64,000 nucleotides of DNA from an uncultured Candidatus Saccharibacteria bacterium (GTDB lineage: Bacteria; Patescibacteriota; Saccharimonadia; Saccharimonadales; SZUA-47), in assembly GCA_964536485.1 (NCBI GenBank), contig CAZHXX010000002.1, forward strand, positions 18,647 to 82,646. The letters are read 5' to 3'. Of this stretch, positions 4,338 through 43,041 are shown one piece after another. The notes under the pieces were generated by a model. That model did no database searches and had not been told where the DNA came from. It saw nothing but the letters and a program-made list of their open reading frames with translations. The position numbers and the translations under genes were made by a program. The first letter of the stretch is position 1; each line of letters begins with the position of its first letter.

Positions 4338-6137
4338 ATGAAAAAAGATAAAAAATATGAGCTCGTTGCTCACGAATATGTTCCTGGGACTTTTCGCGGT
4401 CTGGTATTCATGATGATTAGACCATTTCGTGGGAGGGTTTTAGCGTTCTTTGGGCTTTCTCTTCTCGGTATCCTAAGTTGGACTGTGGCGCCATATATCA
4501 TAAGAAATCTAATTAACACCCTATCAGAAGAAGGTGAGGTCACTACTCATGCATGGTTGCTAGTTAGTCTATTTATACTCGCACGGTTTTCAGATGAGTT
4601 TTTCTGGAGGGTCGCCGAGTATTTAGTGAAAGCTTTCAAGCCAAAAATGATTGAAAGCGTTCGCACTGCGTTATTTGAAGAAACAATGAAAAAACCGCAT
4701 TCATTTTATGTAAATAGTAGTAGCGGACGTATTGGACACTGGATTAATCAGACTACCGGAACAATGGATATATTCGTCAATACGACAATTTGGAGCGTTT
4801 GGCCTCGCGCTATTGGGTTGATTTTAGCGGGTATGTTTCTGTTATTTGCTCATTGGATGTTGGCACTTTTGTTTTTTGTGTGGCTTGTAGCACTCTTTGC
4901 TTTCACCGTAAAGAGAGGTAAGACTTTCAGTGAGTATGTGCAACAAAAAAGTGATGCAGAAAGCAAAACTGCAGGGCGCGTTGTTGATAGCATGTCCAAC
5001 AATGTGAGTGTGCGAGTCTTTAATGCACAACATGCAGAGATTGAAGGGTTGAAGCAACAGCAACACAATATTCTAAAATATTGGCATAAAGAATGGGGGT
5101 ACCACTACATTACCAATATGGTAAAGGGTAACAGCGTTGTTGTTGTAACTGGTGTGGCAATGTCTATAATTTTGTATCTGTTTAGCAAGGGCGAAGTCAC
5201 GGTTGGAGATATCGTGCTTTTCATCGCTTACTTTAACGACGCAAGCAGTAGTTTGTGGGAGCTGTCATGGCAACTTGACCAATATTACAATCAAGCTGGA
5301 ACGGTAAATAATGCACTCAGTGGATTACTGAGAGATGAGAACGAGCGTCATCCTATTTCTCCTGAAAAAGAGGTGCGAACGCCTAAGAGCGCTGAAATTG
5401 AAATAAAGAATCTTTCTTTTTCGTACGAGGAGCAGAAGCAAGAAATTGTTCTTTCAGATATTTCCCTTGCAATTGCACGTGGAGCAAAAGTAGGAGTTGT
5501 TGGCCACAGTGGTGCAGGAAAATCTACTCTCGTAGGGCTACTACTTGGATTTTACGAGCCAAGTAAAGGAGTTATCTATGTAAATGGTGAAGATATGAGT
5601 TCGAGTAGCCCTGCATACATCCGTTCGTTAATTGGCTATGTTCCGCAAGATACAAGCCTGTTTAACCGAACTATTAGGGACAATATAGCTTATGCAAAGC
5701 CAACTGCAAAAGAAGAAGAAATTATTACTGCTCTGAAAAAAGCAGAGGCGTGGGACTTTGTCGCAAAACTGCCGAATGGGCTTGATACGTTGGTCGGTGA
5801 AAGAGGCGTTAAACTGTCTGGCGGGCAGCGACAACGAATTGCTATCGCCCGCGCAATTTTAAAAGATGCGCCGCTTCTCTTATTAGACGAAGCTACGAGT
5901 GCACTCGACAGCGTTAGTGAACAGGCTATCCAGAGAGCGTTGCACGAGCTTATGAAGGGGAGGACGGCAATAGTGATTGCCCATCGCTTATCAACGCTCA
6001 AGCATCTTGACAAAATATTCGTGCTCGAAAAAGGCATAATAGCGGAACAAGGAACTCACGACGAGTTGTTGAAAATAAAATACGGTATGTATGCTGATTT
6101 ATGGAAACGTCAGAAAGACGGCTTCATCGTCGAATAG
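4338..6137 (+). CDS. ABC transporter, fused permease/ATPase (MsbA/multidrug-exporter type)
   Basis: 599 aa. N-terminal 6-TM domain, Walker A GHSGAGKST, signature LSGGQRQR, Walker B LLLDEATSALD. Confidence 0.9.
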   Translation: MKKDKKYELVAHEYVPGTFRGLVFMMIRPFRGRVLAFFGLSLLGILSWTVAPYIIRNLINTLSEEGEVTTHAWLLVSLFILARFSDEFFWRVAEYLVKAFKPKMIESVRTALFEETMKKPHSFYVNSSSGRIGHWINQTTGTMDIFVNTTIWSVWPRAIGLILAGMFLLFAHWMLALLFFVWLVALFAFTVKRGKTFSEYVQQKSDAESKTAGRVVDSMSNNVSVRVFNAQHAEIEGLKQQQHNILKYWHKEWGYHYITNMVKGNSVVVVTGVAMSIILYLFSKGEVTVGDIVLFIAYFNDASSSLWELSWQLDQYYNQAGTVNNALSGLLRDENERHPISPEKEVRTPKSAEIEIKNLSFSYEEQKQEIVLSDISLAIARGAKVGVVGHSGAGKSTLVGLLLGFYEPSKGVIYVNGEDMSSSSPAYIRSLIGYVPQDTSLFNRTIRDNIAYAKPTAKEEEIITALKKAEAWDFVAKLPNGLDTLVGERGVKLSGGQRQRIAIARAILKDAPLLLLDEATSALDSVSEQAIQRALHELMKGRTAIVIAHRLSTLKHLDKIFVLEKGIIAEQGTHDELLKIKYGMYADLWKRQKDGFIVE

Positions 6138-6145
6138 GAAAGATT

Positions 6146-7318
6146 ATGTCTGTGGAAAGAAAAATTGAAACAAGCTATAAGCTCTTGCAACTAGAGTCTT
6201 TGTTGACGGTGATGATGTTTACCGTACCAGTGTTTACAGTGTTTTTGAACAGTGTGGGCTTGAGCCAAGTTGCAGTTGGTGTATCGCAAGCAATATTCAT
6301 GGCTGTTGCGATGTTGTTTGATGTTCCGTCTGGCTGGCTCGCTGACAGGTTTAGCAGAAAGTTAAGCAACTGCTTTGGTGATTTACTGGTTGCTTCAGGG
6401 TTGTTTTACTATGCGACGGTACATTCACTTTTAGGTGTTATCGTGGCTGAAATATTGATTGGAGCTGGAATGGCATTTACGAACGGTGCGGACGTAGGCT
6501 TGTTGCGTTCGTACGCAAAAAAGTTAGGAAAAGATTATGGAAAGATTAGTGCGCGGCTGGGCACGCTTCGGCCTCTCTTTGAGATTACTGCGTTTGTTTT
6601 GGGTGGAATTATTGCCACCCGCAATATTCGTGCGACGTTTGTGGTAAGTGGGTGTATCTTTGTGATTGGAGCACTTATCTCTCTTTTTGTTGAAGAAATA
6701 GGCGAACGACGAAAAACCGAGAAGCATCCACTACGAGATATGGTTGATATAACTAAGTACTCACTACACGGGCACGAAGGCCTCAAGTGGCGAATTATAG
6801 CGGCAGCGGTCGGGGCAAATGTGACGCACACGGTGATATGGATCTTTACTCCTATGCTTTTAGCGGTTAATTTTCCTCTTAGTAGCTTGGGATTTGTCTG
6901 GGGCTGTACGCTTCTTTTTGTAAGTGGTGGGTCTTTGCTGGCGCATCGTTACGCAGACAAACTTAGTGATGCGAAGAAGGTTGCCATTCCTATGGTTGCC
7001 TCAATAGGTGCTTATGTCATCTTAGGTGCTCATCTAAGCGTTTTCACTATTGCATTTGTGCTTCTATTCTCGCTGTCGCGCGGATGGTTTATGGCGGTCT
7101 CTAGCCCAATGATACAAGCTTCAGCACCAGATGATATTCAAGCGACGGTTATTTCTGTTTCGTCATTATTACGGCGTCTTTTCTATATACCTTTGGTGCT
7201 TATGGTGAACTGGCTTGCTGGAATGTCCTTTTCATACGCCTTGCTTGGTTCAGCACTTGTGTATGCTGTTGTTTGCATCTTTTTGGTCCGTGGTCTTAAG
7301 AGATATGCTACGCTGTAG
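6146..7318 (+). CDS. MFS transporter
   Basis: About 390 aa and about 12 hydrophobic segments. MFS motif-A-like GWLADRFSRK. ATG 6146 chosen (aggaaag SD) over the track start 6101, which overlaps the ABC gene. Confidence 0.75.
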   Translation: MSVERKIETSYKLLQLESLLTVMMFTVPVFTVFLNSVGLSQVAVGVSQAIFMAVAMLFDVPSGWLADRFSRKLSNCFGDLLVASGLFYYATVHSLLGVIVAEILIGAGMAFTNGADVGLLRSYAKKLGKDYGKISARLGTLRPLFEITAFVLGGIIATRNIRATFVVSGCIFVIGALISLFVEEIGERRKTEKHPLRDMVDITKYSLHGHEGLKWRIIAAAVGANVTHTVIWIFTPMLLAVNFPLSSLGFVWGCTLLFVSGGSLLAHRYADKLSDAKKVAIPMVASIGAYVILGAHLSVFTIAFVLLFSLSRGWFMAVSSPMIQASAPDDIQATVISVSSLLRRLFYIPLVLMVNWLAGMSFSYALLGSALVYAVVCIFLVRGLKRYATL

Positions 7319-7320
7319 CT

Positions 7321-7908
7321 ATGAATATTCTTGTAATTTCAGCGAGCATGCGCGCACAGTCTCAGAGCCTAAAGATAGCAAATTGGCTCGCACAGCACCT
7401 GAACGATATGCGGGTAGAGTCATCGGTGCTCGATTTACACTCATTCAAGCTACCGCTCTTTGATGATGGTGAAACTCCAGCGGAAAACCTGGCAGAACTA
7501 CACAGGCAACTTGCCCAAGCAGACGGCTACGTCTTTGTGAGCCCTGAATGGAACGGCATGATGAGTCATGGGCTGATAAACATGCTCCACTATGTTGAGA
7601 AGCAGATGGCATATAAGCCAGTAATGTTGGTTGGGGTAAGTGCGGGCCGAGGAGGGACACACCCTATCGATCAGATGAAACTAATGGGCGGGAAAAACAG
7701 ACACTATATTATTAGCCCTGAGAATCTTGTTGTCTCAGGGGTTGAGCAAGCATTTAACAGCCCAGATGTTAATGAAAGTGCCCCGGACTATCCGCTTAAG
7801 AATCGTGCAGTGTATTCCTTAAAAATGCTCACCACTCTTGCAGAGGCACTAACAGCGGTGAGAGCCTCAGGCGCGATTGATTTTGGACAGTTTGCAAATG
7901 GTGTGTAA
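7321..7908 (+). CDS. NAD(P)H-dependent FMN reductase family oxidoreductase
   Basis: 195 aa. MNILVISASMR...ADGYVFVSPEWNGMMSHGLINMLHY matches the FMN_red pattern (SxR ... tPEYNg). Confidence 0.75.
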   Translation: MNILVISASMRAQSQSLKIANWLAQHLNDMRVESSVLDLHSFKLPLFDDGETPAENLAELHRQLAQADGYVFVSPEWNGMMSHGLINMLHYVEKQMAYKPVMLVGVSAGRGGTHPIDQMKLMGGKNRHYIISPENLVVSGVEQAFNSPDVNESAPDYPLKNRAVYSLKMLTTLAEALTAVRASGAIDFGQFANGV

Positions 7909-7950
7909 GCTTACTTATCTTTAAGCGAGCAGTTATGCTACTATGAACTT

Positions 7951-8916
7951 ATGGTTTCAGCACTTGCAATTACTGCAGTGTCAATAACACTTGAGGGTGC
8001 AGAAGTTGGGCTTTATCCGCTCATCATTGCTGTCTTGATAGGGATGCTTATCATATTGCCGTCGGCGCTATTTAGAAAATGGTACTTTTACCGGAGGCGT
8101 CTAAAAAAGAATGTTATTACTGCAGAGTACGAACCCCCACTTGGTCTTAACCCTGCCGAGGTAGGCTATTTATTTGATGGAAAGTTACGCGAACGAGAAG
8201 TCGGAGCAACCATAATTTATCTCATACAAAAGGGGTTTCTACACATAAAAAAAGTGAACGGAGAAAAGAGAATTTATGCGGGTCCGCGGATTGGTGACAA
8301 CTTAAAGACCTATGAGAAAAAATTAATAGAAGAAGCAGACAAGCCAGATGGTGTGACGGCAGGTGCGCTTTTAAGTAGATTTATTGCATATAAAGATAAA
8401 AATTTTGGTGGAGTTGCGAGTAGAGAGCTTGTTTTTACACAGCTAGTTCATTCTGATTTGCACAGAAGACAATATGTAAAAGGCTCTTTCTTGAAGTACT
8501 TTTTGGCTGGTTCGTTAAAGATAACGGTTTTGCTACAACTCGTGCTCGTTTATTTGCCACTTTTTTCGTTATTTATCATAGCTACTATTCAGGATGGCAC
8601 CACAGACTTTACCTTGCTTATGACCTTGCTTATGACGGGATTTTTTGTTTGTATATTTTTGTTATTGCCATTTTTTATAGCAGCGATGATCTTAAATTAT
8701 CTTCGCGGGAGAATACTTGGAAGGGAGTGGATAATTACCGAAAAGCTAAAACGGCTTTGGCCTCAGCTTGTAGGCTATAGGCAGTATATCAAGCTAGTGG
8801 AAAACGACAGACTTGAGTTCCAGTCTGAAGAACTTCAAACTGTCAGCAAAAATGAAACGCTCCCCTATGCTGTTGCAATGGGATATGTAAAAAATTGGCG
8901 ACATATCTTAAGCTAG
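7951..8916 (+). CDS. DUF2207 C-terminal-region-like membrane protein (lacks the N-terminal extracellular domain)
   Basis: 321 aa. EYEPPLGLNPAEVGYLFDGKL...ATIIYLIQKGFLHIKK and C-terminal WPQLVGYRQYI...LPYAVAMG parallel the 14247-15989 paralog. Confidence 0.6.
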   Translation: MVSALAITAVSITLEGAEVGLYPLIIAVLIGMLIILPSALFRKWYFYRRRLKKNVITAEYEPPLGLNPAEVGYLFDGKLREREVGATIIYLIQKGFLHIKKVNGEKRIYAGPRIGDNLKTYEKKLIEEADKPDGVTAGALLSRFIAYKDKNFGGVASRELVFTQLVHSDLHRRQYVKGSFLKYFLAGSLKITVLLQLVLVYLPLFSLFIIATIQDGTTDFTLLMTLLMTGFFVCIFLLLPFFIAAMILNYLRGRILGREWIITEKLKRLWPQLVGYRQYIKLVENDRLEFQSEELQTVSKNETLPYAVAMGYVKNWRHILS

Positions 8917-8917
8917 A

Positions 8918-9370
8918 TTAGATAAGCTCGTAAAATTTAGTTACATCTGCGGGTAAAAGTATGTTTGCCTGATAGCCCATCGATACGCCGAACCACACTT
9001 GGTTTAAAATTCCATTGCTCAATGTATGGCCCGCAATGTTGACCCCTTCAAGCATGCCCCATAGCTTTCTGTCAGGATACATTTTGGCATTTTGGTGCCA
9101 TCCGTAGCATTGAATTACGAATTGTGATGCGTTGACGATGACACCGTTGCTTGCCTTTAACCTTTCGTCGACAGAAGGTGAGTTCTCCCAAGCGCTTCTT
9201 ATCCTTTGTACCGCATCAACCATCACCTGTATTTCCTCATCTTTATCGATTGAAATGCTCTTTCCTCCTTCAACACTACAGAGGTTTTTATAATAGGCAC
9301 ACAGCGAGTTAAAATCTACGCCTAAATCTATTTCGCGGTAACAGTCTGGCGAGTCGGGTAATGTAAGCAT
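8918..9370 (-). CDS. hypothetical protein (150 aa), lone minus-strand gene
   Basis: ORF 8918-9415. Internal ATG 9370 preferred (MLTLPDSPD...) because the first 15 codons (MLMIFNIISLRYSRK) fall in the AT-rich promoter region. No motif recognised. Confidence 0.45.
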   Translation of the reverse strand: MLTLPDSPDCYREIDLGVDFNSLCAYYKNLCSVEGGKSISIDKDEEIQVMVDAVQRIRSAWENSPSVDERLKASNGVIVNASQFVIQCYGWHQNAKMYPDRKLWGMLEGVNIAGHTLSNGILNQVWFGVSMGYQANILLPADVTKFYELI

Positions 9371-9425
9371 CTTTCTAGAGTAGCGCAAACTAATAATATT
9401 AAAAATCATAAGCAAAATGAATTTG

Positions 9426-9455
9426 TTGTAACTAAAGCAAGCAAGGAGTTACAAT
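9426..9455 (+). promoter_or_regulatory. candidate promoter TTGTAA-18-TACAAT, 7 nt from the pheS ATG
   Basis: Hexamers at 9426-31 and 9450-55; ATG 9463; no SD at functional distance. Confidence 0.5.
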
Positions 9456-9462
9456 TAGACTA

Positions 9463-10479
9463 ATGAAAGAAATTAATACAGCGCGTGAGGCGCTTCGCCA
9501 AGAGTTCGAAAAGCTTGAGGATAAAAAAGCTATAATGCGTAGTGTTCAGTTGCGCGCGCTCTTTGATGGAATTCGAGAGATAGAGGCGGATAAGCGAGCT
9601 GAATATGGGCAAGCCGTAAACAGGCTAAAGCAAGAACTGCAAGAATGGATTGATGAACAATCCCAAACTGTTGATGTCGTGACGGCTATAGATGTGACCG
9701 CACCGTGGGATGTTAACACGGCTTCAGATAAACGACCAAGATTCTTACCGAGCACACAGGGTAGTGTGCACCCTCTTAAAACAGAGATTGAGCGTATCTG
9801 TGATATTTATCAGCGCATGGGCTTTGTGGTTGAAGAATCGCGCGAGATTGATGATGACTACCACATGTTTGCGAGCCTTAACTTCCCTGAAGGCCATCCG
9901 GCCCGTGATGACTATGACACTTTCATGACAGACGAAGGGTTTATTGCACCAGCGCACACTAGCACTATGCAGAACAGAATGCTCAAGAAATATCGAGATA
10001 ACCTAGAAAAAGGCGAGCCAATTGCCGTTATTGTCCCGGATAGGGTCTTCCGTAACGAGGATATTGATGCAACTCATGAACATACGTTCTACCAGATTGA
10101 AGGTGTGTATGTGTCGCGTGGAGTGACAGCTGGAAATCTCATCGCGACGCTGTCAGCTTTTATGAATGAATATTTTGGCCAAGAATTAAAGACAAAATTA
10201 CAGCCATTTTACTTTCCGTTTACGGAGCCAAGTTTTGAGTTTGCGATTGAGCGACCAGATGTTTTAAAAAAGGATAATTCTGAAGAGCAAAAGTGGCTTG
10301 AACTGCTCGGCTGCGGGATGATTCACCCCAACGTTTTAAGAGAAGCGGGGATAGACCCAGAAGTTTATACGGGTTTTGCTTGGGGAAATGGTATTGAGCG
10401 TATGGTCATGATGAGGAACCGGATAGAAGATATTCGTCATTTTGAGTCGGGTAACTTAAAGTTTTTGAGGCAATTTTAA
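9463..10479 (+). CDS. pheS: phenylalanine--tRNA ligase alpha subunit
   Basis: 338 aa. Class II core motifs (FPEGHPARD, RVFRNEDIDATHEHTFYQIEG, GWAWGNGIERMVM). Confidence 0.95.
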   Translation: MKEINTAREALRQEFEKLEDKKAIMRSVQLRALFDGIREIEADKRAEYGQAVNRLKQELQEWIDEQSQTVDVVTAIDVTAPWDVNTASDKRPRFLPSTQGSVHPLKTEIERICDIYQRMGFVVEESREIDDDYHMFASLNFPEGHPARDDYDTFMTDEGFIAPAHTSTMQNRMLKKYRDNLEKGEPIAVIVPDRVFRNEDIDATHEHTFYQIEGVYVSRGVTAGNLIATLSAFMNEYFGQELKTKLQPFYFPFTEPSFEFAIERPDVLKKDNSEEQKWLELLGCGMIHPNVLREAGIDPEVYTGFAWGNGIERMVMMRNRIEDIRHFESGNLKFLRQF

Positions 10480-10661
10480 TGGAGCGAATTATTTTAGGGA
10501 TTGCACTAGTCGTGTCTGTTCTTCTAAACACGACACTTTTCATCGGGAACATTGTTGCAAAAAATTGGCCGATGGCTCTTGGCAATTTACTTATAGACGG
10601 CATGTTCGTGTTTATTTTATGTATTGGCTATAAATCAACAGCTAAAGGAAAGCATAAATGA
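10479..10661 (+). CDS. small membrane protein (60 aa, 2 predicted TM)
   Basis: Start overlaps the pheS stop (TAATG) and stop overlaps the HIT start (ATGA). Hydrophobic. Coding status inferred from the coupling geometry. Confidence 0.45.
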   Translation: MERIILGIALVVSVLLNTTLFIGNIVAKNWPMALGNLLIDGMFVFILCIGYKSTAKGKHK

Positions 10662-11113
10662 GCACGATCTTCGACAAAATTGTAAGCGGGGAAATGGCGT
10701 CATGGGTAGTTTGGCAAGATGAGAACTATATGGCGTTTTTAACACCTTTTCCAAACACGCCAGGTTTTACCGTGGTCATACCAAAAAAGAATGTTGGGGA
10801 CTACTTATTTTCTCTCAGCAATGAAGACTATTTAGGCTTGCTGAGTGCATCAAAGTTAGTAGCAAAAAAGCTAGAAAAGGCGTTTGACACGCCTAGAGTA
10901 GCCATGGTGGTAGAAGGTACGGGCGTCGCGCACGTTCATGTGAAGCTTATTCCTTTGCACGGCGAACTTGCAGGCCAAACAGATGTATGGAGCAAGCACA
11001 CCGAATTCCATGAGACCTATCAAGGATTTCTCACGACAGCAGAAGGTCCTAAAATGGACGACGAACAACTAGACGAGATTCAAAAGAAGATCCTCGAGGC
11101 TCAAATTGATTAA
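10658..11113 (+). CDS. HIT (histidine triad)-like hydrolase, variant motif HVHVK
   Basis: 151 aa. WQDENYMAFLTPFPNTPGFTVVIPKK and GVAHVHVKLIPLHG fit the HIT fold pattern, but the third His of HxHxH is Lys and the usual PGH is PGF. Confidence 0.7.
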   Translation: MSTIFDKIVSGEMASWVVWQDENYMAFLTPFPNTPGFTVVIPKKNVGDYLFSLSNEDYLGLLSASKLVAKKLEKAFDTPRVAMVVEGTGVAHVHVKLIPLHGELAGQTDVWSKHTEFHETYQGFLTTAEGPKMDDEQLDEIQKKILEAQID

Positions 11114-11705
11114 TGAGAATTTTGTTTTTGTTGGGTTCTTGCTGACTATGGTTGGCTCGCTGGCGTATGTCCGGGACATTGTACGAGGAAAGGTCAGACC
11201 TAATATTGTGACGTGGGTATTATGGGCGCTTGCACCTATGGTGGCTTTTTCGGCACAGATTGTTGAAGGAGCTGGCTTGCGCTCGGTTCATACATTTAGC
11301 ACTGGGTTCGGCCCACTTCTTATTGTCGTAACAGCGCTACTCTACAAACATTCTCTTTTCAAAATAAAGAAAAGAGACTACTTTTTTGGAGCATTGTCAC
11401 TCGTTGGCATTATCTTATGGAAAATAACGGGCGAAGGATCTATTGCAATACTGTTTGCAATTCTGGCTGACCTATTTGCAGCTTTGCCGACAATAGAAAA
11501 ATTGTACTTTCATCCCGAGACCGAGAATGGCTGGGTGTTTGGCATTGGTATTCTAGGGGCACTAATTGCGCTCTTGACCGTAAAAGACTGGCGCTTTCAA
11601 GAGTTTGGGTTTTCACTCTATATATTTTTGGTTAATATAGTAATGTTTACCCCAACAGCCAGGCGCTACGTGCAGGCACGACAAAAAAATGGAGTTACCG
11701 TATGA
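11106..11705 (+). CDS. multi-pass membrane protein, unknown family
   Basis: 199 aa, about 6 hydrophobic segments. TTG start overlapping the HIT stop by 8 nt; stop overlaps the pheT ATG (ATGA). Confidence 0.55.
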   Translation: MINENFVFVGFLLTMVGSLAYVRDIVRGKVRPNIVTWVLWALAPMVAFSAQIVEGAGLRSVHTFSTGFGPLLIVVTALLYKHSLFKIKKRDYFFGALSLVGIILWKITGEGSIAILFAILADLFAALPTIEKLYFHPETENGWVFGIGILGALIALLTVKDWRFQEFGFSLYIFLVNIVMFTPTARRYVQARQKNGVTV

Positions 11706-14263
11706 AGTTTAGTTGTAATATAGCTGATTATTATAGTGATATTGACTTTAGGGCGTTACCTAAAGACGAGTTAGTAACGCGCATGGGTTTGCAACTTGGC
11801 GCGATTGAAAGTTTCGCTGACTATGCACCGAAGTATAAGGACGTTATTGTCGTTCGAGTTGTTGAATGTATAAAGCACCCTAATGCAGATAAGTTGAGCC
11901 TGTGTCGAGTCGATGATGGTGGCATGATGCAACATGTGGAACGTGGTGAAGATGGCCTTGTCCAAGTAGTATGCGGTGCGCCTAATGTGCGAGCAGGAAT
12001 ACTCGCTGCCTGGATACCACCAGGAGCGACAGTGCCAGCAAGTTATGATACTGACCCATTTGTCCTAGAAGCGCGAGAGCTTCGAGGCAAGGTCAGCAAC
12101 GGCATGTTAGCAAGTAAAAAAGAGCTTGCTATAAATGACGACCATGATGGTATTCTCGAAATCGACGAGGCTGAGATTGGGCGGGTACCTGCAGTGGGTG
12201 AGCCTGTTGCGCCTCTCTACGGCCTGGATGACTTCGTTATTGACTGTGAGAATAAGATGTTCACCCATCGACCTGATTGTTTTGGTAATTTAGGCATTGC
12301 TCGTGAAGTTGCCGGAATTTTTGGTAAAAAATTTACGAGCCCAGAGTGGTATGGGGGCACGGTAACTTTTGACGATGCTGACGAAGTGAGTCTTATGAGC
12401 GACAACCAAATTCCAACAAAAGTTCCGCGCATCATGACTGTGGCGATGAAAAATGTTACGGTAAAACCAAGCCCTATTCGGCTACAGGCATATTTACAGC
12501 GCGTTGGGATTAAGCCTATTAATAACGTAGTGGACGTCACAAACTATGTAATGCACCTCACCGCCCAACCACTACATGCGTTTGATCTTGACAAGCTGGC
12601 ATCACGTTCAGAGAAGCTCGGGGTGTTTCCTCGGATGGCTACTAAAGGTGAAAAAATTATGCTCTTAGGCAATAAAGAAGTGATACTGACTGAAGAAGAT
12701 ATGGTTATCTCAACAGATAAGCAGGTGGTTGCCCTTGCTGGAGTTATGGGTGGCGCCGAGACAGAAGTTGACGAAACTACCAAGAATATTCTTATTGAAT
12801 GCGCAACTTTTGACATGTATACCGTGCGACGAACAAGTATGCGTCATGGATTGTTTACCGAAGCAGTGACGCGCTTTAATAAAGGCCAATCTCCAAAACA
12901 AAACCCTCATGTCCTCGCTTATGCTATGAAAGCTATGAACGACCATGCTGGTGCAGTGCAGGCAAGTAACGTCACCGACGCTCCTCTTGCTGAAGACCAT
13001 AAAGGTGAGCTTGTATTTCGGCTCTATGACGGGGTGCGTGGGCCAATGGAAGGTCCTGAGCCTATCAGCATTTCTTTTATCAATGAACGACTTGGCACGC
13101 AACTTACCATCGAAGAAGTGTGCGCCCTACTCGAGAATGTTGAATTTTCGGCATACCCTAAAGACGAGGCAGAGCTCTTTTACTGGGCACCTTATTGGCG
13201 AATGGATATCGCTATTCCAGAGGATGTGGTCGAAGAGATTGGGAGACTATATGGCTACGATAAACTTCCGGTGACGCTCCCAGCCAGATCATCAAAGCCG
13301 GCACCTCGCAATGCGCGTTTTGACTTTGCTCGTTCACTTGCTAAGAAACTACAAAAAGCAGGCGCAAACGAACTGTTAACTTATTCGTTCGTTCATGGCG
13401 ATTTGCTTAAGAATACCGGCACTCAACCAGAAGAATCCGCCTACCACTTGCGAAATGCTTTGAGTCCGGATCTGCAGTACTACCGCACAAGCTTGTTACC
13501 TAGTTTGCTTGCAAAAGTCCGCCAGAACAGTAAAGCTCAAGCAGGAAGTGAGAATAATGAATTCGCGCTGTTTGAAATAGGTAAGGCACACGTTAAGGGC
13601 GAGAACAAAGAGCACGAAGAATTGCCGAAGCAGATGAGAAGACTTGCTTTTGTACACGTTGCAGACCAGAAAACAGCAAAGAATTACGACGGGGCGCCAT
13701 ATTACCAAGCAAAACAATATGTTGACTATGTGACCAACGGACAGGCAAAATATTTGCCACTAGATACAAATGATTATCCGATAAGCGCGCCGTTCCAGCT
13801 CGGTAGGTCGGCAGTTATTATGGTGGCAGACCAAGTCCTTGGGATTGTTGGTGAGTTTAATCATAGAACAAAAGCTCACTTAAAGCTTCCCGATTTCTGT
13901 GCCGGCTTTGAATTAGACATAGATTTATTGCAGACACATATCTCTGAGAAACGTTACAAGCCACTTTCTGTCTATCCTAGTACCGAACAAGATATGACGC
14001 TTGAAGTTGACGAAACCGTGACATGGCAACATATTGAAGAGCTTCTGCACGCCGAGCTAGCGGTGGCTAAGGCAGAAAGTGGCTACGACTATGATATTGA
14101 ACCACTTGATATCTACCAATCCGAAGGTGCTACGAAGAAGCGCATAACGTTTCGGATCCGCCTGACGCATTACGAGAAGACACTTAAAACCGAAGAGGTA
14201 AGCATACTCTTTGCCCAGCTTGCAAAAGTAGCAAAGGAGCTACTCGGTGCGACACTTATCTAG
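11702..14263 (+). CDS. pheT: phenylalanine--tRNA ligase beta subunit
   Basis: 853 aa. N-terminal tRNA-binding domain (HPNADKLSLCRVDDG), B3/4 and B5 regions, C-terminal FDX-ACB-like end. Confidence 0.95.
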   Translation: MKFSCNIADYYSDIDFRALPKDELVTRMGLQLGAIESFADYAPKYKDVIVVRVVECIKHPNADKLSLCRVDDGGMMQHVERGEDGLVQVVCGAPNVRAGILAAWIPPGATVPASYDTDPFVLEARELRGKVSNGMLASKKELAINDDHDGILEIDEAEIGRVPAVGEPVAPLYGLDDFVIDCENKMFTHRPDCFGNLGIAREVAGIFGKKFTSPEWYGGTVTFDDADEVSLMSDNQIPTKVPRIMTVAMKNVTVKPSPIRLQAYLQRVGIKPINNVVDVTNYVMHLTAQPLHAFDLDKLASRSEKLGVFPRMATKGEKIMLLGNKEVILTEEDMVISTDKQVVALAGVMGGAETEVDETTKNILIECATFDMYTVRRTSMRHGLFTEAVTRFNKGQSPKQNPHVLAYAMKAMNDHAGAVQASNVTDAPLAEDHKGELVFRLYDGVRGPMEGPEPISISFINERLGTQLTIEEVCALLENVEFSAYPKDEAELFYWAPYWRMDIAIPEDVVEEIGRLYGYDKLPVTLPARSSKPAPRNARFDFARSLAKKLQKAGANELLTYSFVHGDLLKNTGTQPEESAYHLRNALSPDLQYYRTSLLPSLLAKVRQNSKAQAGSENNEFALFEIGKAHVKGENKEHEELPKQMRRLAFVHVADQKTAKNYDGAPYYQAKQYVDYVTNGQAKYLPLDTNDYPISAPFQLGRSAVIMVADQVLGIVGEFNHRTKAHLKLPDFCAGFELDIDLLQTHISEKRYKPLSVYPSTEQDMTLEVDETVTWQHIEELLHAELAVAKAESGYDYDIEPLDIYQSEGATKKRITFRIRLTHYEKTLKTEEVSILFAQLAKVAKELLGATLI

Positions 14264-15989
14264 AATTTTTTTAGGGATTATTCTTGCTGTAAGTTTTGGA
14301 CTGTTGCCTCACCACGCGAGCGCAGAGGATACTGATAATTTTGTCATAGAATCATTTGACGCAGGCTATAAACTCACGAATGAAGACCAGCAAGGCAAGC
14401 TTACTACGACGGAAACTATCACTGTAAACTTTAGCGGACAAAACCACGGTATCTTGCGGGCAATACCCGTCAAGTATGGTGAAGACTCTACAAATCCTGT
14501 CGTGCAAGAGGTACAACGTGATGGTCGTACAGAGCCCTATACGACCACCGAAGATAGCGACAATCTTGTACTGCGTATCGGAGACCCGTCTTTACTGATA
14601 ACGGGTATGCACACATATCGTATTACCTATACTGTTGAAAATGCGGTTCGTTTCTTTGACGATCATGATGAAGTCTATTGGGATGTTAATGGCGACCAAT
14701 GGAAACAGTCTGCCAAAAGTGTTAGCGCGAGTTTTGATGCCGACGTGGCTCTGAAGGTCGTGCCGGTGCTTTGTTATACGGGGGTTCAGGGGGCAAAAGA
14801 AAGTGCTTGCGAAGTGACGACAGGAGATAGGAGCTTCAGTGTTAAAACGACGCGTTCACTTAGCCCCCAAGAGACATTAACCTTTGTGGTGGCGTTTGAG
14901 AAAGGCCATTTTACGCCAAAAACGTGGCTCGAACGGTATTGGCAGTGGATTTTTGTCAGTCCTCTGTTCTTACTTCAGTCGGGGGTTGTCTATTCTGCCT
15001 ACCGTCGCTGGAAAAAGATAGGTAAAGATTATAAGAAACGCGGAATAACAGTACCTTATTATGAGAGACCAAAGAATATTAGCGTTATGGAGACGAGCTA
15101 TGTGGCAACTAATATGATTACGACAAAGCATATAAGTGCTGGGATAATTGACCTCGCTATACGAGGCTATATAAAAATTGTTGAACACAAGGAGCGCTTT
15201 AAGACCAAACACGAACTGGTGCATATGAAGGCTTCGCGTAGCGAGCTACAAGAGGACGAAGCCATGCTAATGGATAAACTTTTTACGGATATTCCTGTGG
15301 GGAGTGGATTTATGCTTGAAGACAAGGCAAATAAACTGTACAAAGCAACGCAGGAACTCGGTGCATTGTTAGACGAACGGGCGATAAAGCACGGCTATTA
15401 TGAAGTCTCACCAAAGAAAGCTTTAACAGCGCTTTTGAAGCAACTCATCATCTCTATTCTTTTACTTGTTATTGGGTTTTTTGTCTCACCAATTACGTCA
15501 GGAATGACAATCTTGACAGGTTTTGGGGCAGTTGTCTTGGTGATCATCTTTAACGCCCTCATGGCAAAAAGAAGCCTTGCCGGTAATTCGATAGTCGAAC
15601 ATTACGAAGGGTTAAAGCTGTATATAGAAACTGCCGAAAAAGACCGCATAAAGGCACAAGATGCTGTAGACGCACCCCTTGCAATGCATGGAGACGAGCC
15701 GGTTCATGACATCAAGTTTTTTGAGAAACTATTACCTTTTGCTGTAGCGCTTGGTGTTGAAAAGACATGGGCCAAAGCTTTTGAAGGCATCTACACCGCT
15801 CCGCCTGATTGGTATGGAGGGAATTGGAATACGTTTGGAACAGTGGCGCTTGCCCAGAGTTTGAGTCAAACTACAAAAGCTACAGGCATGTCATTTAGCC
15901 CGCCTTCAAGCTCGGGAAGTTCTGGCTTTTCGGGTGGCGGTGGCTTCTCCGGTGGCGGAGGTGGCGGAGGTGGCGGTGGTGGCTGGTAG
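14247..15989 (+). CDS. DUF2207 domain-containing membrane protein with Gly-rich C-terminal tail
   Basis: 580 aa. Signal peptide (...LLPHHASA/ED), extracellular N-domain, YERPKNISVMETSYV...DLAIRGYIKI, TM cluster, tail SGGGGFSGGGGGGGGGGGW. GTG start overlaps pheT by 17 nt. Confidence 0.75.
   Translation: MRHLSRIFLGIILAVSFGLLPHHASAEDTDNFVIESFDAGYKLTNEDQQGKLTTTETITVNFSGQNHGILRAIPVKYGEDSTNPVVQEVQRDGRTEPYTTTEDSDNLVLRIGDPSLLITGMHTYRITYTVENAVRFFDDHDEVYWDVNGDQWKQSAKSVSASFDADVALKVVPVLCYTGVQGAKESACEVTTGDRSFSVKTTRSLSPQETLTFVVAFEKGHFTPKTWLERYWQWIFVSPLFLLQSGVVYSAYRRWKKIGKDYKKRGITVPYYERPKNISVMETSYVATNMITTKHISAGIIDLAIRGYIKIVEHKERFKTKHELVHMKASRSELQEDEAMLMDKLFTDIPVGSGFMLEDKANKLYKATQELGALLDERAIKHGYYEVSPKKALTALLKQLIISILLLVIGFFVSPITSGMTILTGFGAVVLVIIFNALMAKRSLAGNSIVEHYEGLKLYIETAEKDRIKAQDAVDAPLAMHGDEPVHDIKFFEKLLPFAVALGVEKTWAKAFEGIYTAPPDWYGGNWNTFGTVALAQSLSQTTKATGMSFSPPSSSGSSGFSGGGGFSGGGGGGGGGGGW
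15951..15983 (+). repeat. in-frame GGTGGCGGA-type 9-nt microrepeat (about 3.5 units) encoding the poly-Gly tail
   Basis: ggtggcgga ggtggcgga ggtggcggt ggtggc read directly at 15951-15983; a further ggtggcggtggc at 15933-15944. Confidence 0.8.
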
Positions 15990-15992
15990 TCT

Positions 15993-16928
15993 ATGAATGA
16001 AATATATGTCGTCGTTGTTGCCATAGTATCGTTTGTCGCCATGTTTGTGGCAGTGAAATTTCTTATGTTCAGTTATTTTTTGAATGATACAGTGAGCGTA
16101 GAATCGCTAAAAACATACAGTTTGTATGCTGGTTACAATTTGTTGCCAGAAGATGTTTGTAGCATCAGCCTTAAACGATCGTCCTTTAACAAGGGAAGGG
16201 TTTTAGCAGGATTTGAAGGCACGCTGACTGAGTCAAAGAATCCATTTGTATGTATGTACCACTCCGAAGCCGGGGGAGCAGGAAAGACAAGAGCGAATTT
16301 CACTCGCACAATCCTCTCGATCAGCATACCTGATACACGGCTACAAGTGATTATAAATAGCCGTCTTGCCAGCGATCTTAAATCCGGGGGAAATCTGAGT
16401 CAGTATTCTCGTGGACAGCGGTATCTGCCTGAAGGTGACTTTGGGATATTCTATGAAATTTACTTCCCAGAAAGTACACAGTCTGAATCACTTGCGATTC
16501 TAAGCCCTGATTCACTGTTATATTTATTGAAAGAATTTTCTGCATATGATATTGAAATTGCTGGTAATACTTTGTACATATACTCGTATAAGTTGCTTCC
16601 GGCTAAGGTAGTAGATCAAATGTTGCACAAGGCAGATGAACTAATGAAACAATTAAGACTGAGGAAGAGCGATAGTGTTACTGAGCCGACTACTCAAAAT
16701 CTCGTAGCCCTGACCGCTATAGATGCCCCTGTAGTATTGAGAGGCTTACGCAAGAATACACAACGTTTTTTTGGCAGTTTAGCTTTCATTCTTTTTCTGT
16801 TTACGCCAATGTTAAATGGTGTGGTTTTTGCGCTCGCCATCGTTTTGGTCGTTACAATTATGGCTACTCTTGCTTTTAGTGAGACCTCGTTAAAGAGAAA
16901 ATATAATAAGTTTATTCGTAATAGCTAG
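15993..16928 (+). CDS. membrane protein, DUF3137-like pattern
   Basis: 311 aa. N-terminal TM, FEGTL...FTRTILSISIPD, LPEGDFGIFYEIYFPE...LAILSPDSLLYLL...YDIEIAGNTLYIYSY, C-terminal TM pair. Family name recalled from memory and not verified. Confidence 0.5.
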   Translation: MNEIYVVVVAIVSFVAMFVAVKFLMFSYFLNDTVSVESLKTYSLYAGYNLLPEDVCSISLKRSSFNKGRVLAGFEGTLTESKNPFVCMYHSEAGGAGKTRANFTRTILSISIPDTRLQVIINSRLASDLKSGGNLSQYSRGQRYLPEGDFGIFYEIYFPESTQSESLAILSPDSLLYLLKEFSAYDIEIAGNTLYIYSYKLLPAKVVDQMLHKADELMKQLRLRKSDSVTEPTTQNLVALTAIDAPVVLRGLRKNTQRFFGSLAFILFLFTPMLNGVVFALAIVLVVTIMATLAFSETSLKRKYNKFIRNS

Positions 16929-18374: not shown

Positions 18375-18398
18375 TGTATTACTTAACAATTTAAAAGT

Positions 18399-18489
18399 AT
18401 AAAGAGTGCAAGGTAGAGTTCTAGCTCGTCGATCTTGCCAGCAACCACGTAAATTTTTACGAACGGTGCTCCATCTAGCCTGACTTTGT
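18399..18489 (+). ncRNA. candidate SAM-I-clan (SAM-IV or SAM-I/IV-like) riboswitch aptamer in the metK leader
   Basis: Core strings aGAGUG, P2 GCAAG(18408-12)/CUUGC(18434-38), CAGCAACC, P3 hairpin CGUAA-auuu-UUACG, GGUGC. CUAG in the P2 loop and CUAG in J3/4 could form the pseudoknot. P1 AUAAAG(18399-404)/CUUUGU(18484-89). Hand-folded only. Confidence 0.4.
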
Positions 18490-18522
18490 TCAGGAAAAAT
18501 AGTTTTGAATGTATCTTCAATA

Positions 18523-18559
18523 TTCTTTCTTATCCTGAGTACAGCCAGAGAAGAAAGGA
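18523..18559 (+). promoter_or_regulatory. SD-sequestering helix (expression platform) upstream of metK
   Basis: UUCUUUCUU (18523-31) pairs over 9 bp (one G-U) with AAGAAAGGA (18551-59), which contains the metK SD gaaagga. AAAGAG of the P1 5' strand can alternatively pair with UUCUUU. Confidence 0.4.
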
Positions 18560-18566
18560 TATTTTT

Positions 18567-19682
18567 ATGTCATATCAATTATTTACCAGCGAGAGCGTTG
18601 CCGCGGGTCATCCAGACAAGATAGCTGATGCTATTAGTGATGCACTGCTTGACGCGTTGCTTGAGCAGGATCCGTTTGCGCGCGTTGGCCTAGAAACGAT
18701 TGTTGGTGCTAATAAGATTGGGTTGTTCGGCGAGATTAAAACAACTGCTGTGGTTGATATTGAATCAATTGTACGTGCCACGGTAAAACGACTAGGATAT
18801 ACAAACCCGGCTTGGAACTTTTCTTACGAGTCACCTATAGATGACAATATTCATCAGCAGTCACCAGAGATAGCAATCGGAGTAGACAATGACGGCGCTG
18901 GAGACCAAGGGATGATGTTTGGTTTTGCATGCAACGAAACGCCGGAACTTATGCCTCTGCCAATAACGCTTGCACATGCGCTTACGAGGACGCTCGACGC
19001 AAAACGCGAGTCTGGTGAAATTGCATTTTTACGGCCTGACGGTAAAAGTCAGGTAACCGTGAGATATGAGAATGGCGTGCCTACGAAGATAGAGAAGGTT
19101 GTTATGGCAGTGGCGCATGACGAGGAGACGCCAGCAGAGAAAGTGCATCAGATCGTAAAAACAGAAGTAGTTGACGAAGCCTTGAGTGCGTACGGATTTG
19201 ATATTGATGATAGCGAGGTCGTGGTAAACGGCACTGGCTTATGGCATATACCTGGACCAGACACTGACGCAGGCCTGACAGGGAGGAAAATTGTGGTTGA
19301 CGGCTATGGTGGATATGCCAGAGTTGGAGGAGGTGCGTTTAGCGGTAAAGATCCGAGTAAAGTAGACCGTTCTGCTGCGTACGCTGCACGCTACCTTGCA
19401 AAAAATGTTGTAGCCAAAGGTTACGCGAGTAAGTGTGAGGTTGCACTTGCGTACGTCATTGGGAAGGCTAAACCACTGATGCAAGCATTTGATACGTTCG
19501 GGAGCGAGACTGCGCCTCTTGATGAGATTGAGAAGTATATAGCTGGGCTTCTCGATACAAGTGTGAAGGGGATTGTTGAAGGGTTGAATTTAAGAAAACC
19601 AATTTATAGCGCCACTACGGCATATGGTCATTTTGGGAAAAAAGAGTTACCGTGGGAACAGCTAGACAAAAAAACTAGATAA
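18567..19682 (+). CDS. metK: S-adenosylmethionine synthase
   Basis: 371 aa from ATG 18567 (MSYQLFTSESVAAGHPDKIADAISD). GAGDQGMMFGFA, GGGAFSGKDPSKVDRSAAY. Confidence 0.95.
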   Translation: MSYQLFTSESVAAGHPDKIADAISDALLDALLEQDPFARVGLETIVGANKIGLFGEIKTTAVVDIESIVRATVKRLGYTNPAWNFSYESPIDDNIHQQSPEIAIGVDNDGAGDQGMMFGFACNETPELMPLPITLAHALTRTLDAKRESGEIAFLRPDGKSQVTVRYENGVPTKIEKVVMAVAHDEETPAEKVHQIVKTEVVDEALSAYGFDIDDSEVVVNGTGLWHIPGPDTDAGLTGRKIVVDGYGGYARVGGGAFSGKDPSKVDRSAAYAARYLAKNVVAKGYASKCEVALAYVIGKAKPLMQAFDTFGSETAPLDEIEKYIAGLLDTSVKGIVEGLNLRKPIYSATTAYGHFGKKELPWEQLDKKTR

Positions 19683-42400: not shown

Positions 42401-43041
42401 ATGTCGGGAACTATAAAGAGCCACAAGTTTCAATAGAGAAGACTAACAATACGACAGGTCCAGTACTGCGTGGGACTCAGATTACCTTTACGATAGTTAT
42501 AACCGTACCTGGCGTCGCTACAAGCGGGATTCTGCATGGCACATATAATGGATCAACCTACGTTCCGGTTACTGTGTTTGATGAGTTCACTAACGAATTT
42601 GAATATATTATAGGAAGCTACACGGCTGTCTCAAGCATCCGAGGCGATCTAAAAGCGCAAGGTATCGTGACTGATCCAAATTATGCATCACCAGGAACTT
42701 GGAACTTAACTTCAGAAACATCAAATGATGTTTTGCCAGGTGAGGTGATTACGCTTACCTACAAGGGAATCGTAGAGCCGAACGCACCTGCTGCGAAGTA
42801 TAAAACAACAGCAACTGTAACGGGTTACGGCGATACGATCACTGTTCAAGTGAGCGATACGGACGATGACCAAGTACTTGTGTACGTTCCTGCAGTACTA
42901 GGTACTTCTACGACGGCAAAAAAACAGCTCGCATCCACCGGAAGTAACGCGGTATATGCACTTATTTTAGGATGTAGCGTGATCGCAGTGAGCTGGCAGG
43001 TGTCTAGGCTATCAAAGAAACAACCAGCATCGTCAAAATAG
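39406..43041 (+). CDS. LAXTG-anchored multidomain cell-surface protein (tandem prealbumin/Cna-B/DUF11-like Ig-fold domains)
   Basis: 1211 aa. Signal peptide (...QKASA/ATSS), N-terminal ICH..NSPY..GDIIPP..NW..C module, about 9 consecutive beta-rich domains, C-terminal LASTG (42928-42942) + hydrophobic helix + KKQ. ggaggtg SD. Confidence 0.85.
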   Translation: MYKMNGVKQLSRILVSGILLSAQIIPYFSLNTQKASAATSSVRICHVNNNVNSPYVSLSVSADSVDGLGAGDHYLEHTGPIATSVSVAQQFKDNHESWGDIIPPVPGVHAGLNWTSVGQAIWNANCSITTIEVKKVLVPANDPGLFNLKIEGSVYATNIGNNGTTGAIYIDDTQDISVGETAGTSTALGDYSTSIVCKNDNGNGAIVETGNPASVNSRDDTISNLDISAGDAIVCVFTNTRLFGTLVVNKILNQDNGGNKTASDFSFTVSNYNSGNPIAFESDGSNSLQVPIGTYSVVETATPGYDVTYQTCSDITITANTSKTCTITNTSQPAYLTVTKVVQNNNGGNAQPDDFGLTVNGKLVLSGQKKAYLAGTPLTLDETQLPGYEFVSITGDEACPSALDGSLTLQPGDDISCTITNKDVAPTVTIVKKVINDNGGTLTANDFGISMNDSAVSFGTPQVNGFTSTYTATQAVTANTTIVLSEEDTPGYSEGSWSCTNSETVIIFTISFLLEEGQNITCTVTNNDQAPALSLIKNVVNSYGGNTTADAWTLIAQHANDTPVIAQQGMIAPQSNGQQAATPLVPVESGVFYTLSESNGPTGYVAGEWTCEGGELVNGAVKLVYGTKVFCSITNTEVRPTLTVVKYATNDNGGTMQADDFTLYVNNEELTDPEVSEEVEGTSSALYELPLYSNAEYNVSESEVPGYENTSIDCMDVTNGLEDAPALSQPFTASSGMKVRCEVYNNDKAPVVHVTKTTEGEECFYDESWYDEENWCEGERFNFTMNLGGEEYTDFGLGNGDEFTTESDMKAGVVEVTEAETEGWFLVEANCYSYANDNMMEYLSTTFKTEIGKEYYCDFYNEKAGQVIVTKFHDYDEDGEWDEGEPALSDWEMTLTPHSYCEGSLSKITAVQAIDSVVLDNCEQPKVVSMKETTDEDGEALFDGLRRGRYDVDEIMQDGWVQSSIYCENDWDKVVRISSEQQKMSHSVYVRPGQTAYCYVGNYKEPQVSIEKTNNTTGPVLRGTQITFTIVITVPGVATSGILHGTYNGSTYVPVTVFDEFTNEFEYIIGSYTAVSSIRGDLKAQGIVTDPNYASPGTWNLTSETSNDVLPGEVITLTYKGIVEPNAPAAKYKTTATVTGYGDTITVQVSDTDDDQVLVYVPAVLGTSTTAKKQLASTGSNAVYALILGCSVIAVSWQVSRLSKKQPASSK
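40135..41652 (+). repeat. five tandem protein-domain repeats (about 90-110 aa each) inside the surface protein
   Basis: Units start at 40135, 40405, 40681, 40996 and 41323. Each opens with (T/S)hxhhKxhxNxxGG(N/T)xxxxDF/W and closes with C(T/S/E)hxN. Similarity is at protein level, not as an identical DNA repeat. Confidence 0.7.

Follow-up and report, generated by a model that had tools for sequence, protein, structure and literature searches.

Why does a gene for a histidine triad (HIT) protein lie between the two genes of phenylalanyl-tRNA synthetase (PheRS)? In most bacteria, pheS and pheT, encoding the alpha and beta subunits, are adjacent. In a 64,000-nucleotide (nt) stretch of contig CAZHXX010000002.1 from an uncultured Candidatus Saccharibacteria bacterium (the window), they are 1225 nt apart, and three genes are located inside the interval. 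Named homologues likewise place the window in this group (Saccharimonadia, Patescibacteria/CPR). A preliminary description of the window proposed that the HIT protein is a clean-up partner of PheRS. We examined the gene block, its relatives in other genomes, and the predicted structures of its products. The HIT gene is a conserved resident of the pheS-pheT interval (hereafter the slot) in Saccharibacteria, the only one of the three inserts of which this can be said. The reading toward which we lean is an ancient HIT insertion into a permissive PheRS operon with later turnover of other cargo, the HIT protein itself being a general house-cleaning enzyme. The five genes of the block are as follows.

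9463-10479, plus strand: pheS, phenylalanine--tRNA ligase alpha subunit, 338 amino acids (aa); TIGR00468, PF01409, PF02912
10479-10661, plus strand: open reading frame (ORF) directly after pheS; 60-aa small protein with two hydrophobic segments (predicted transmembrane helices)
10658-11113, plus strand: HIT-superfamily protein, 151 aa, [H/Y]-x-H-x-K subfamily; PF01230
11106-11705, plus strand: ORF with a TTG start; 199-aa predicted seven-helix membrane protein without annotated family
11702-14263, plus strand: pheT, phenylalanine--tRNA ligase beta subunit, 853 aa, all five domains; TIGR00472

The position of the HIT gene was analyzed with one genome per GTDB species. The variant occurred in 260 genomes, and the analysis covered its 80 best loci. 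At 33 of these 80 species-level loci, pheS was located upstream and pheT downstream of HIT on the same strand; HIT and the membrane protein served as the starting points for collecting loci, and this fraction is the share of HIT loci, not of pheS-pheT slots. Eight more of the 80 had pheS or pheT on one side only, some of them being ended by contig ends. At about 25 loci where both flanks extended for 4.5 kb or more, neither gene was near HIT. The distance from the HIT stop to the pheT start was -4 nt (ATGA) in 16 of 18 abutting loci, and the distance from the pheS stop to the HIT start was between -4 and +4 nt at 12 of 14 loci. Neighbor-joining (NJ) trees of single short proteins (150 aa and 340 aa) were built. 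HIT was present on every main branch of the PheS tree, down to 54% PheS identity, and the genes outside pheS and pheT varied between the HIT-bearing branches. The synteny survey indicated that the position of HIT is not random. The survey did not support the three inserts as one unit: the 60-aa ORF occurred only in the closest relatives, and the 199-aa protein in none of the 80 HIT-sampled loci.

HIT orthologues outside the slot were also found. They had 62-74% identity and came from other Patescibacteria and from a nested Saccharibacteria subclade. All loci titled Taylorbacteria, Paceibacterota, Moraniibacteriota, or WWE3 had HIT outside the pheS-pheT slot. The nested Saccharibacteria subclade had it among alpha/beta-hydrolases and a two-component system, and one off-slot HIT adjoined cupin and NUDIX genes. 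A recurrent neighbor or another aminoacyl-tRNA synthetase (aaRS) was looked for beside the off-slot HITs, and none was found.

The HIT protein of the window matched PF01230 with 42.6 bits (cut-off 21.5, E 1e-10) over residues 11-101. Its motif is G-V-A-H92-V-H94-V-K96-L, and its N-terminal motif is N-T-P-G-F37. Reading the sequence confirmed that the motif is atypical, as had been proposed, with HVHVK for HxHxH and PGF for PGH. The complete H-x-H-x-H triad of the HIT superfamily is absent, K96 being the third residue. H94 aligned with the middle (nucleophilic) histidine of 3p0t, 7mqw, and 3imi. In 29 close homologues, H94 and K96 were invariant, position 92 was H or Y, and position 37, the site of the 'PGH' histidine, was F, L, V, M, or Y. 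The [H/Y]-x-H-x-K motif was present in all 83 loci fetched. A profile search of 1.84 billion representatives returned 4416 HIT relatives, including 118 at E<=1e-30. Among the top 150 matches, the active domain almost always had [H/Y]-x-H-x-K, rarely with R or L as the last residue, and none had HxHxH in that domain. H94 was also invariant across the roughly 150 top matches. The [H/Y]-x-H-x-K HITs are therefore a discrete, uncharacterized subfamily. The joint loss of the third and the N-terminal histidine suggests that the two positions may be structurally coupled.

The same motif was found in proteins of other architectures. Tandem proteins of about 300-310 aa had an N-terminal half without the motif histidines and an active C-terminal half with the lysine, and long fusion proteins also belonged to the subfamily. 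Named animal examples, among P0228-P0377, are XP_078589389.1 of Branchiostoma (amphioxus; P0234) and XP_072020392.1 of the brittle star Amphiura filiformis (P0231). Both species are invertebrate deuterostomes, and both proteins were annotated 'uncharacterized' only.

The 3D structure of the HIT protein was modeled using AlphaFold 2. The model had a predicted local distance difference test (pLDDT) score of 84.7 and an alpha+beta HIT fold. Foldseek returned 118 PDB matches at E<=1e-3, and the first 50 listed were all HIT-family proteins. The best fold matches were 3p0t and 7mqw, with template modeling (TM) scores of 0.70-0.78. The protein has no membrane segment. Nothing tied HIT to the membrane, where the preliminary description had tentatively placed it. 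The HinT equivalog models were not reached (NF045834, 39.1 bits against a cut-off of 130; NF007965, 23.5 against 206). A literature search found no description of an HxHxK HIT variant, only unrelated peptide papers being matched, and no paper linking the histidine triad with pheS/pheT or a Saccharibacteria HIT with PheRS.

We compared the HIT protein with known systems. The mycobacterial HITs 3p0t and 7mqw, whose function is uncharacterized, were the best sequence matches (E 5e-14 to 8e-15). They share with it a similar length including a C-terminal extension, and a short loop before the triad (..G-x-x-V-x-H-x-H..) without the N..GQ segment of Hint. A difference is that they have the canonical H-L-H-V-H and 'T-Q-G-H', whereas the window HIT has H-V-H-V-K and 'T-P-G-F'. 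Also, no linkage of these proteins to pheS or pheT is known. Hint/HinT proteins (human HINT1 and E. coli HinT) have the same fold and nucleophilic histidine, and the HINT1 structures 4eqe (with Lys-AMS) and 6j65 (with Ap4A, diadenosine tetraphosphate) were among the structural neighbors. Hint is said, from work by Chou and Wagner in 2007, to hydrolyze the lysyl-AMP made by LysRS. The window HIT differs from Hint/HinT in being far below the HinT cut-offs, in having Lys for the third histidine, and in a shorter and different loop at the place of the Hint-specific Asn, Gln, and Ser.

The GalT/Ap4A phosphorylase (Apa1/2) branch, with HxHxQ, is similar to the window HIT in that the third histidine is replaced and the nucleophile kept. 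In this branch, nucleotidyl transfer or phosphorolysis reportedly takes the place of hydrolysis, as a 2002 review by Brenner is said to describe. Unlike these enzymes, the window HIT has Lys instead of Gln and is a single domain of about 150 aa, not a two-repeat protein. The Pfam scan gave no GalT or Apa family match for it. MccH, compared by description, is another HIT enzyme with a job defined by an aaRS, as it cleaves an aminoacyl-adenylate mimic (PMC8323819). MccH, which protects AspRS, is encoded in or near antibiotic clusters, of which the window has none.

The slot also contained other genes. Among 37 loci containing both subunit genes, pheS and pheT were separated by as little as 448 nt (14 loci, with HIT alone) and by up to 7181 nt. 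Compared with the canonical bacterial pheST operon, the subunits in the window are likewise full-length and co-directional with pheS first. The difference is the distance, 1225 nt in the window and 448-7181 nt in related Saccharibacteria. More than 20 unrelated gene families occupied the slot. The enzymes among them included GDSL hydrolases, SDR, FMN reductase, pyridine-nucleotide disulphide oxidoreductase, and Ser hydrolase. Further cargo included NUDIX, MazG, CYTH, NYN, cupin, PNPOx, DprA-like, DUF5674, and GIY-YIG/DUF4357 genes. The extreme expansion was observed in locus L030 (1977-9159), where pheS and pheT are 7.2 kb apart and HIT, KsgA-like, YfiH-like, MetRS, and TatD-like genes lie between them (named by reading the sequences, not by Pfam).

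The nearest relatives of the window had PheS proteins 78-88% identical to that of the window and the same flanking DUF2207 genes, with different cargo. Loci L007 and L074 had HIT only. L010 had a small ORF (59 aa), a Ser hydrolase gene, and HIT, and L009 had a small ORF, GDSL, HIT, and SDR genes. L093 had a membrane protein, DUF5674, and another ORF. The 60-aa ORF, HIT, and the 199-aa protein occurred together only in the window and in L087. Three loci, L088, L093, and L097, had a slot without HIT. In L088 (3985-8113, GCA_965231105.1), the seven-helix membrane protein gene lay between pheS and pheT with 4-nt overlaps on both sides, and the flanks (RmuC, GH63-like, YajQ) matched those of L005 and L012, whose layout is pheS-HIT-pheT. 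L011, which is pheS-HIT-pheT, and L088, with the membrane protein in place of HIT, had 75% PheS identity.

Junction alignments of the window with L007 and L074 showed the extra genes as exact cassette-like indels at gene borders. A mobile element or gene cassette was considered as their origin and rejected, as there were no flanking repeats, target-site duplication, or recombinase. Repeats at the cargo borders were all short, as chance would produce, and no integrase or transposase was found in the block. The two membrane proteins are lineage-specific additions.

The three inserts were compared with L087, an independent assembly with a PheS 88% identical to that of the window and an identical five-gene layout. 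The proportions of nonsynonymous (pN) and synonymous (pS) differences were 0.14 and 0.89 for the 60-aa ORF (72% identical protein), 0.091 and 0.87 for the HIT gene, and 0.159 and 0.80 for the 199-aa membrane gene. For comparison, those of pheS were 0.082 and 0.857. Synonymous sites were saturated (pS 0.80-0.89). Because the layout is repeated in L087 and pN is low against saturated pS, the three inserts are real genes under purifying selection. Another explanation is that the small ORFs arise by chance or mis-assembly and that pheS and pheT are truly adjacent. The 60-aa ORF has no family match, and the database call for the membrane gene uses another start, which would fit this explanation. 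Apart from the L087 layout and the purifying selection, which effectively refute it, the inserts have 107 (the 199-aa protein) and 1551 homologues, and their AlphaFold 2 models are confident. We regard an artefact as hardly conceivable. As a separate observation, pheT of L087 is in four ORFs at 5597-7988, and the contig label has '2x'. The split is most likely a low-coverage sequencing or assembly error and not a pseudogene.

The 60-aa ORF gave no Pfam or NCBIfam family match. It was found only in the closest family-level relatives. Related small ORFs were located directly after pheS in L009, L010, and L008, with the common motif K[ND]W..A.GN...DG...Y..KS. L007 and L074 had no such ORF, and pheS abuts the HIT gene there. 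The 60-aa ORF is lineage-specific cargo, always located directly after pheS.

Searches with the 199-aa protein gave 107 homologues and matched no family in Pfam or NCBIfam. A Pfam search of 56 members at E<=1 gave scattered noise, and PQ-loop (PF04193) and MtN3 (PF03083) were not among the families listed (25 of 34 families listed). The AlphaFold 2 model had a pLDDT of 93.7 and seven helices (4-26, 34-53, 57-79, 89-108, 111-135, 142-157, and 164-195). The top Foldseek matches were AtSWEET13, cystinosin, the KDEL receptor, and the mitochondrial pyruvate carrier, with E>=0.014 and TM scores of 0.45-0.58. They were the sole coherent fold matches, and all have the 3+1+3 fold. Compared by hhalign for an internal repeat of a three-helix bundle, the half with helices 1-3 and the half with helices 5-7 gave no significant match (E 0.23 over 17 columns). 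Conserved proline-containing motifs of the family are G-K-V-[KR]-P-N after helix 1 and L-P-T-I-x-K in helix 5. The protein thus resembles SWEET/PQ-loop/KDEL-receptor transporters in its seven helices and weak 3+1+3 fold matches, and differs from them in having no PQ-loop or MtN3 profile match. We tentatively consider it a putative small-solute transporter with a SWEET/PQ-loop-like fold. PQ-loop relatives transport amino acids. Homologues with at least 57% identity were in the pheS-pheT slot (L087, L088/L089, L093, L095, and L097), and about 70 with at most 54% identity were outside it.

The start of the 199-aa gene is the weakest point of the anatomy. The database call (P0121) is a 185-aa form starting at ATG 11148, versus TTG 11106 for the 199-aa form. 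Nineteen homologues share a conserved MINENFVF N-terminus, in which M1, F6, and V7 do not vary, and homologues show conservation of the first 14 residues. A GAGG motif lies 6 nt before TTG 11106, and no such motif lies before ATG 11148. Because of the conserved N-terminus and the GAGG, we favor the TTG start and with it the 8-nt overlap with HIT.

All three inserts were found as ORFs between pheS and pheT, and the raw sequence bore out the four overlapping junctions of the preliminary description. They are TAATG at 10477-10481 between pheS and the 60-aa ORF (1-nt overlap), ATGA at 10658-10661 between the 60-aa ORF and HIT, the 8-nt overlap of HIT and the 199-aa ORF at 11106-11113, and ATGA at 11702-11705 between the 199-aa ORF and pheT. 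Five starts were checked for Shine–Dalgarno (SD) motifs. GGAG, GAGG, or AGGA was located 6-8 nt before the starts of the block, except for pheS (16 nt); the 60-aa ORF, for example, has GAGG 8 nt ahead of its ATG. The SD-like motifs are placed within the 3' end of the preceding gene. Nearly all genes of the window are on one strand, with a G+C content of 41-47%, and roughly a quarter of the same-strand pairs in the ORF list overlap. Because overlapping or near-abutting junctions are common in the window, the run of four is notable, not extraordinary.

Promoter-like sites in 8800-16200 numbered 14, versus 12.3 +/- 4.0 in shuffled sequence, showing no excess. Terminator-like signals in this region were no commoner than in shuffled sequence. 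An AT-rich hairpin at 11352-11377 inside the membrane gene was taken as chance, the scan not being above shuffled sequence. The five genes are, as the preliminary description held, a compact co-directional block with overlapping junctions, and internal promoter and terminator signals are at the shuffled level. From this geometry we infer expression from a single mRNA with translational coupling.

Both PheRS subunits are equivalog-level matches. PheS matched TIGR00468 with 247.1 bits (cut-off 237.45) and PF01409 with E 7.1e-75, and PheT matched TIGR00472 with 539.3 bits (cut-off 402.65). The tRNA_bind, B3_4, B5, tRNA_synthFbeta, and FDX-ACB domains of PheT are all present. PheT was aligned with Thermus thermophilus 1b70_B. 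T249, N250, H261, G315, E334, T354, and A356, which we take to be the B3/4-domain editing-site residues of 1b70_B, all aligned with identical residues. The editing site of PheT appears intact, and therefore there is no visible proofreading deficit for HIT to fill. HIT as a substitute for a degenerate PheT editing site was rejected, as these editing residues all appear conserved.

We propose the following history. An early ancestor of the Saccharibacteria sampled would have acquired an HxHxK-HIT gene between pheS and pheT, and the gene would have been kept there, its stop usually overlapping the pheT start as ATGA. The interval would then have become a permissive slot, in which lineages gain and lose cargo at gene borders. 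At these borders, cargo would be transcribed from an essential constitutive operon and translated by coupling or from its own SD motif. The extra cargo of the window would be the 60-aa two-helix membrane protein and the seven-helix putative small-solute transporter. For the HIT protein, the catalytic roles of His94 and Lys96 and the class of substrate are predicted by homology to Hint, Fhit, and GalT. In the mechanisms of these enzymes, the nucleophilic histidine forms a covalent nucleoside monophosphate (NMP)-enzyme intermediate. In a nucleoside-5'-monophosphate conjugate, the alpha-phosphate would be attacked by His94, giving a covalent NMP-His intermediate. The contact that the canonical third histidine makes with the phosphate or leaving group would fall to Lys96, and the N-terminal histidine, normally packed on the third histidine, would have been replaced by a hydrophobic residue together with it. 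The enzyme may act in general adenylate or nucleotide house-cleaning, its tie to PheRS being mainly co-expression and trapping between co-selected genes. Its position may be conserved without a functional tie because it is lodged between two genes that selection keeps together; synteny alone is therefore no proof of a dedicated partnership. On the whole, we find it somewhat probable that HIT is an old resident of this kind with a general role. Several points weigh against this reading. Of all the cargo, HIT alone was kept through the full depth of the clade as sampled, and the HIT-pheT junction is remarkably uniform, more than a neutral passenger needs. The persistence of HIT together with the uniform ATGA junction fits selection for co-production with PheRS. 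The two-sided sampling of loci described above also counts here. A single ancestral insertion, read from NJ trees of 150-aa and 340-aa proteins, is not robust. The single mRNA and the coupling are deduced from sequence, and the catalytic roles from homology.

The main alternative is that the HxHxK-HIT is a dedicated partner, co-produced with the beta subunit to clear by-products of PheRS. These would be released phenylalanyl-adenylate (Phe-AMP), misactivated tyrosyl-adenylate (Tyr-AMP), or Ap4A and diadenosine triphosphate (Ap3A) made when tRNA is limiting. The chemistry would be hydrolysis or phosphorolysis via His94-AMP, and the operon position would have been selected for stoichiometric or local co-production. 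The core idea, a clean-up partner of PheRS, is that of the preliminary description, here limited to HIT. Its premise stood up in the literature: PheRS is counted as a 'high' producer of Ap4A (PMC10148737), and analogues of aminoacyl-adenylates are bound or cleaved by HIT enzymes, as by MccH (PMC8323819) and by HINT1 with Lys-AMS (PDB 4eqe). The linkage is also conserved, pheS-HIT-pheT persisting in deeply diverged loci whose flanks and other cargo differ, with ATGA onto pheT at most abutting loci and HIT as the sole recurrent guest on all main tree branches. In addition, other nucleotide house-cleaning genes (NUDIX, MazG, CYTH) were found in the slot or beside HIT. However, HITs 62-74% identical occur away from pheS, pheT, and any aaRS gene in Paceibacterota, Moraniibacteriota, WWE3, Taylorbacteria, and a Saccharibacteria subclade, and three slots lack HIT. 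The PheT editing residues are apparently conserved and leave no obvious gap, and trapping in a co-selected gene pair suffices to explain the position without a functional link. We regard a dedicated partnership as a serious possibility that is, on balance, unlikely. A bolder form of the claim, which we consider rather doubtful, is that HIT serves Saccharibacterial PheRS as a true accessory factor, a third operon-encoded component that would clear or convert Phe-AMP, Tyr-AMP, or Ap4A. Because the third histidine is lost, it might do so by phosphorolysis, by analogy with the HxHxQ branch.

HIT could also protect PheRS from outside, as MccH does for processed microcin C, by detoxifying aminoacyl-adenylate mimics that poison the enzyme. 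Such mimics would be nucleoside antibiotics with a phosphoramidate or sulfamoyl group, of the same type as microcin C, agrocin 84, or phosmidosine, which often come from Actinobacteria, the hosts of Saccharibacteria, and the seven-helix protein could be the matching exporter or importer. In aminoacyl-adenylate mimics, the N-P bond is hydrolyzed by MccH-type HITs, whose stand-alone orthologues confer resistance (PMC8323819). HIT adjoins the potential target enzyme, and the change in its active-site motif points to an unusual substrate. No antibiotic that mimics Phe-adenylate is connected with the system, though, and no biosynthetic or resistance cluster is nearby. The subfamily, at least 62% identical across classes and widespread including in animals, looks like a housekeeping one and not like the product of an arms race, and an immunity role seems improbable to us. 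We give even less credence to the idea that the 60-aa protein, HIT, and the seven-helix protein form a membrane-tethered module acting with PheRS in channeling of Phe uptake or in membrane signaling. All three are coupled in the window and in L087, amino acids are transported by PQ-loop relatives, and the slot repeatedly contains close homologues of the membrane protein. These two loci are the only ones where the three inserts co-occur, and close relatives have HIT alone, the membrane protein alone, or a small ORF with other cargo. The HIT protein lacks a membrane segment, and the transporter assignment comes from weak fold matches.

What is new here is an uncharacterized HIT subfamily and an undescribed operon layout. 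Few bacterial HIT/HinT enzymes have an established physiological substrate, and links to aaRSs have been proposed mainly from in-vitro chemistry. A HIT gene in the PheRS operon across a large part of Saccharibacteria provides a concrete substrate hypothesis. If HIT were an accessory factor of PheRS, it would give the first physiological substrate for the whole subfamily, including the tandem animal proteins, and would be the first HIT enzyme hard-wired into an aaRS operon. If it is a mere passenger, the result is tidy but ordinary comparative genomics. The locus also illustrates gene gain in ultra-small, promoter-poor genomes, with cargo placed at the gene borders of an essential operon, overlaps of 1-8 nt, and fast turnover. 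Moreover, it exposes an unannotated family of seven-helix membrane proteins.

The block is surrounded by the following features.

7951-8916, plus strand: DUF2207_C protein, upstream context; PF20990, E 4.6e-21
8918-9415, minus strand: 165-aa ORF just upstream of pheS, no family match
9426-9455, plus strand: weak candidate promoter-like site TTGTAA-18-TACAAT, a consensus match just upstream of pheS
14247-15989, plus strand: DUF2207 membrane protein, downstream context; PF09972, PF20990

Because promoter-like counts match those of shuffled sequence, the site at 9426-9455 is a consensus match and not functional evidence. The minus-strand ORF at 8918-9415 breaks the plus-strand array, and L087 has a 157-aa minus-strand gene in the same place. 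The block from pheS to pheT is flanked by DUF2207 paralogues, of which the upstream one consists of the C-domain alone and the downstream one is full-length, ending in a poly-glycine C-terminal tail. This bracket was also found in L007, L009, L010, L074, and L087. The upstream DUF2207_C gene was conserved ahead of pheS in L007-L010, L074, and L087, and the downstream DUF2207 neighbor was also found in L007, L009, L010, and L074. The end of pheT is overlapped by 17 nt by the DUF2207 gene, provided that the GTG start of the longest ORF (14247) is correct. With this gene, the co-directional array extends beyond pheT.

Two observations were made elsewhere in the window. The ORFs at 39406-43041 and 48575-52210 both encode 1211 aa and were considered as paralogues. 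They are unrelated, one being a surface protein with SpaA/prealbumin-fold repeats and the other DnaE (DNA polymerase III alpha), and the equal length is a coincidence. At 18394-18505 on the plus strand, a SAM (S-adenosylmethionine) riboswitch (RF00162) scored 44.9 bits, slightly over the gathering score, and metK (S-adenosylmethionine synthetase) follows it directly. The metK ORF is listed at 18486-19682 with a TTG start overlapping the SAM aptamer, and the true start is probably further downstream.

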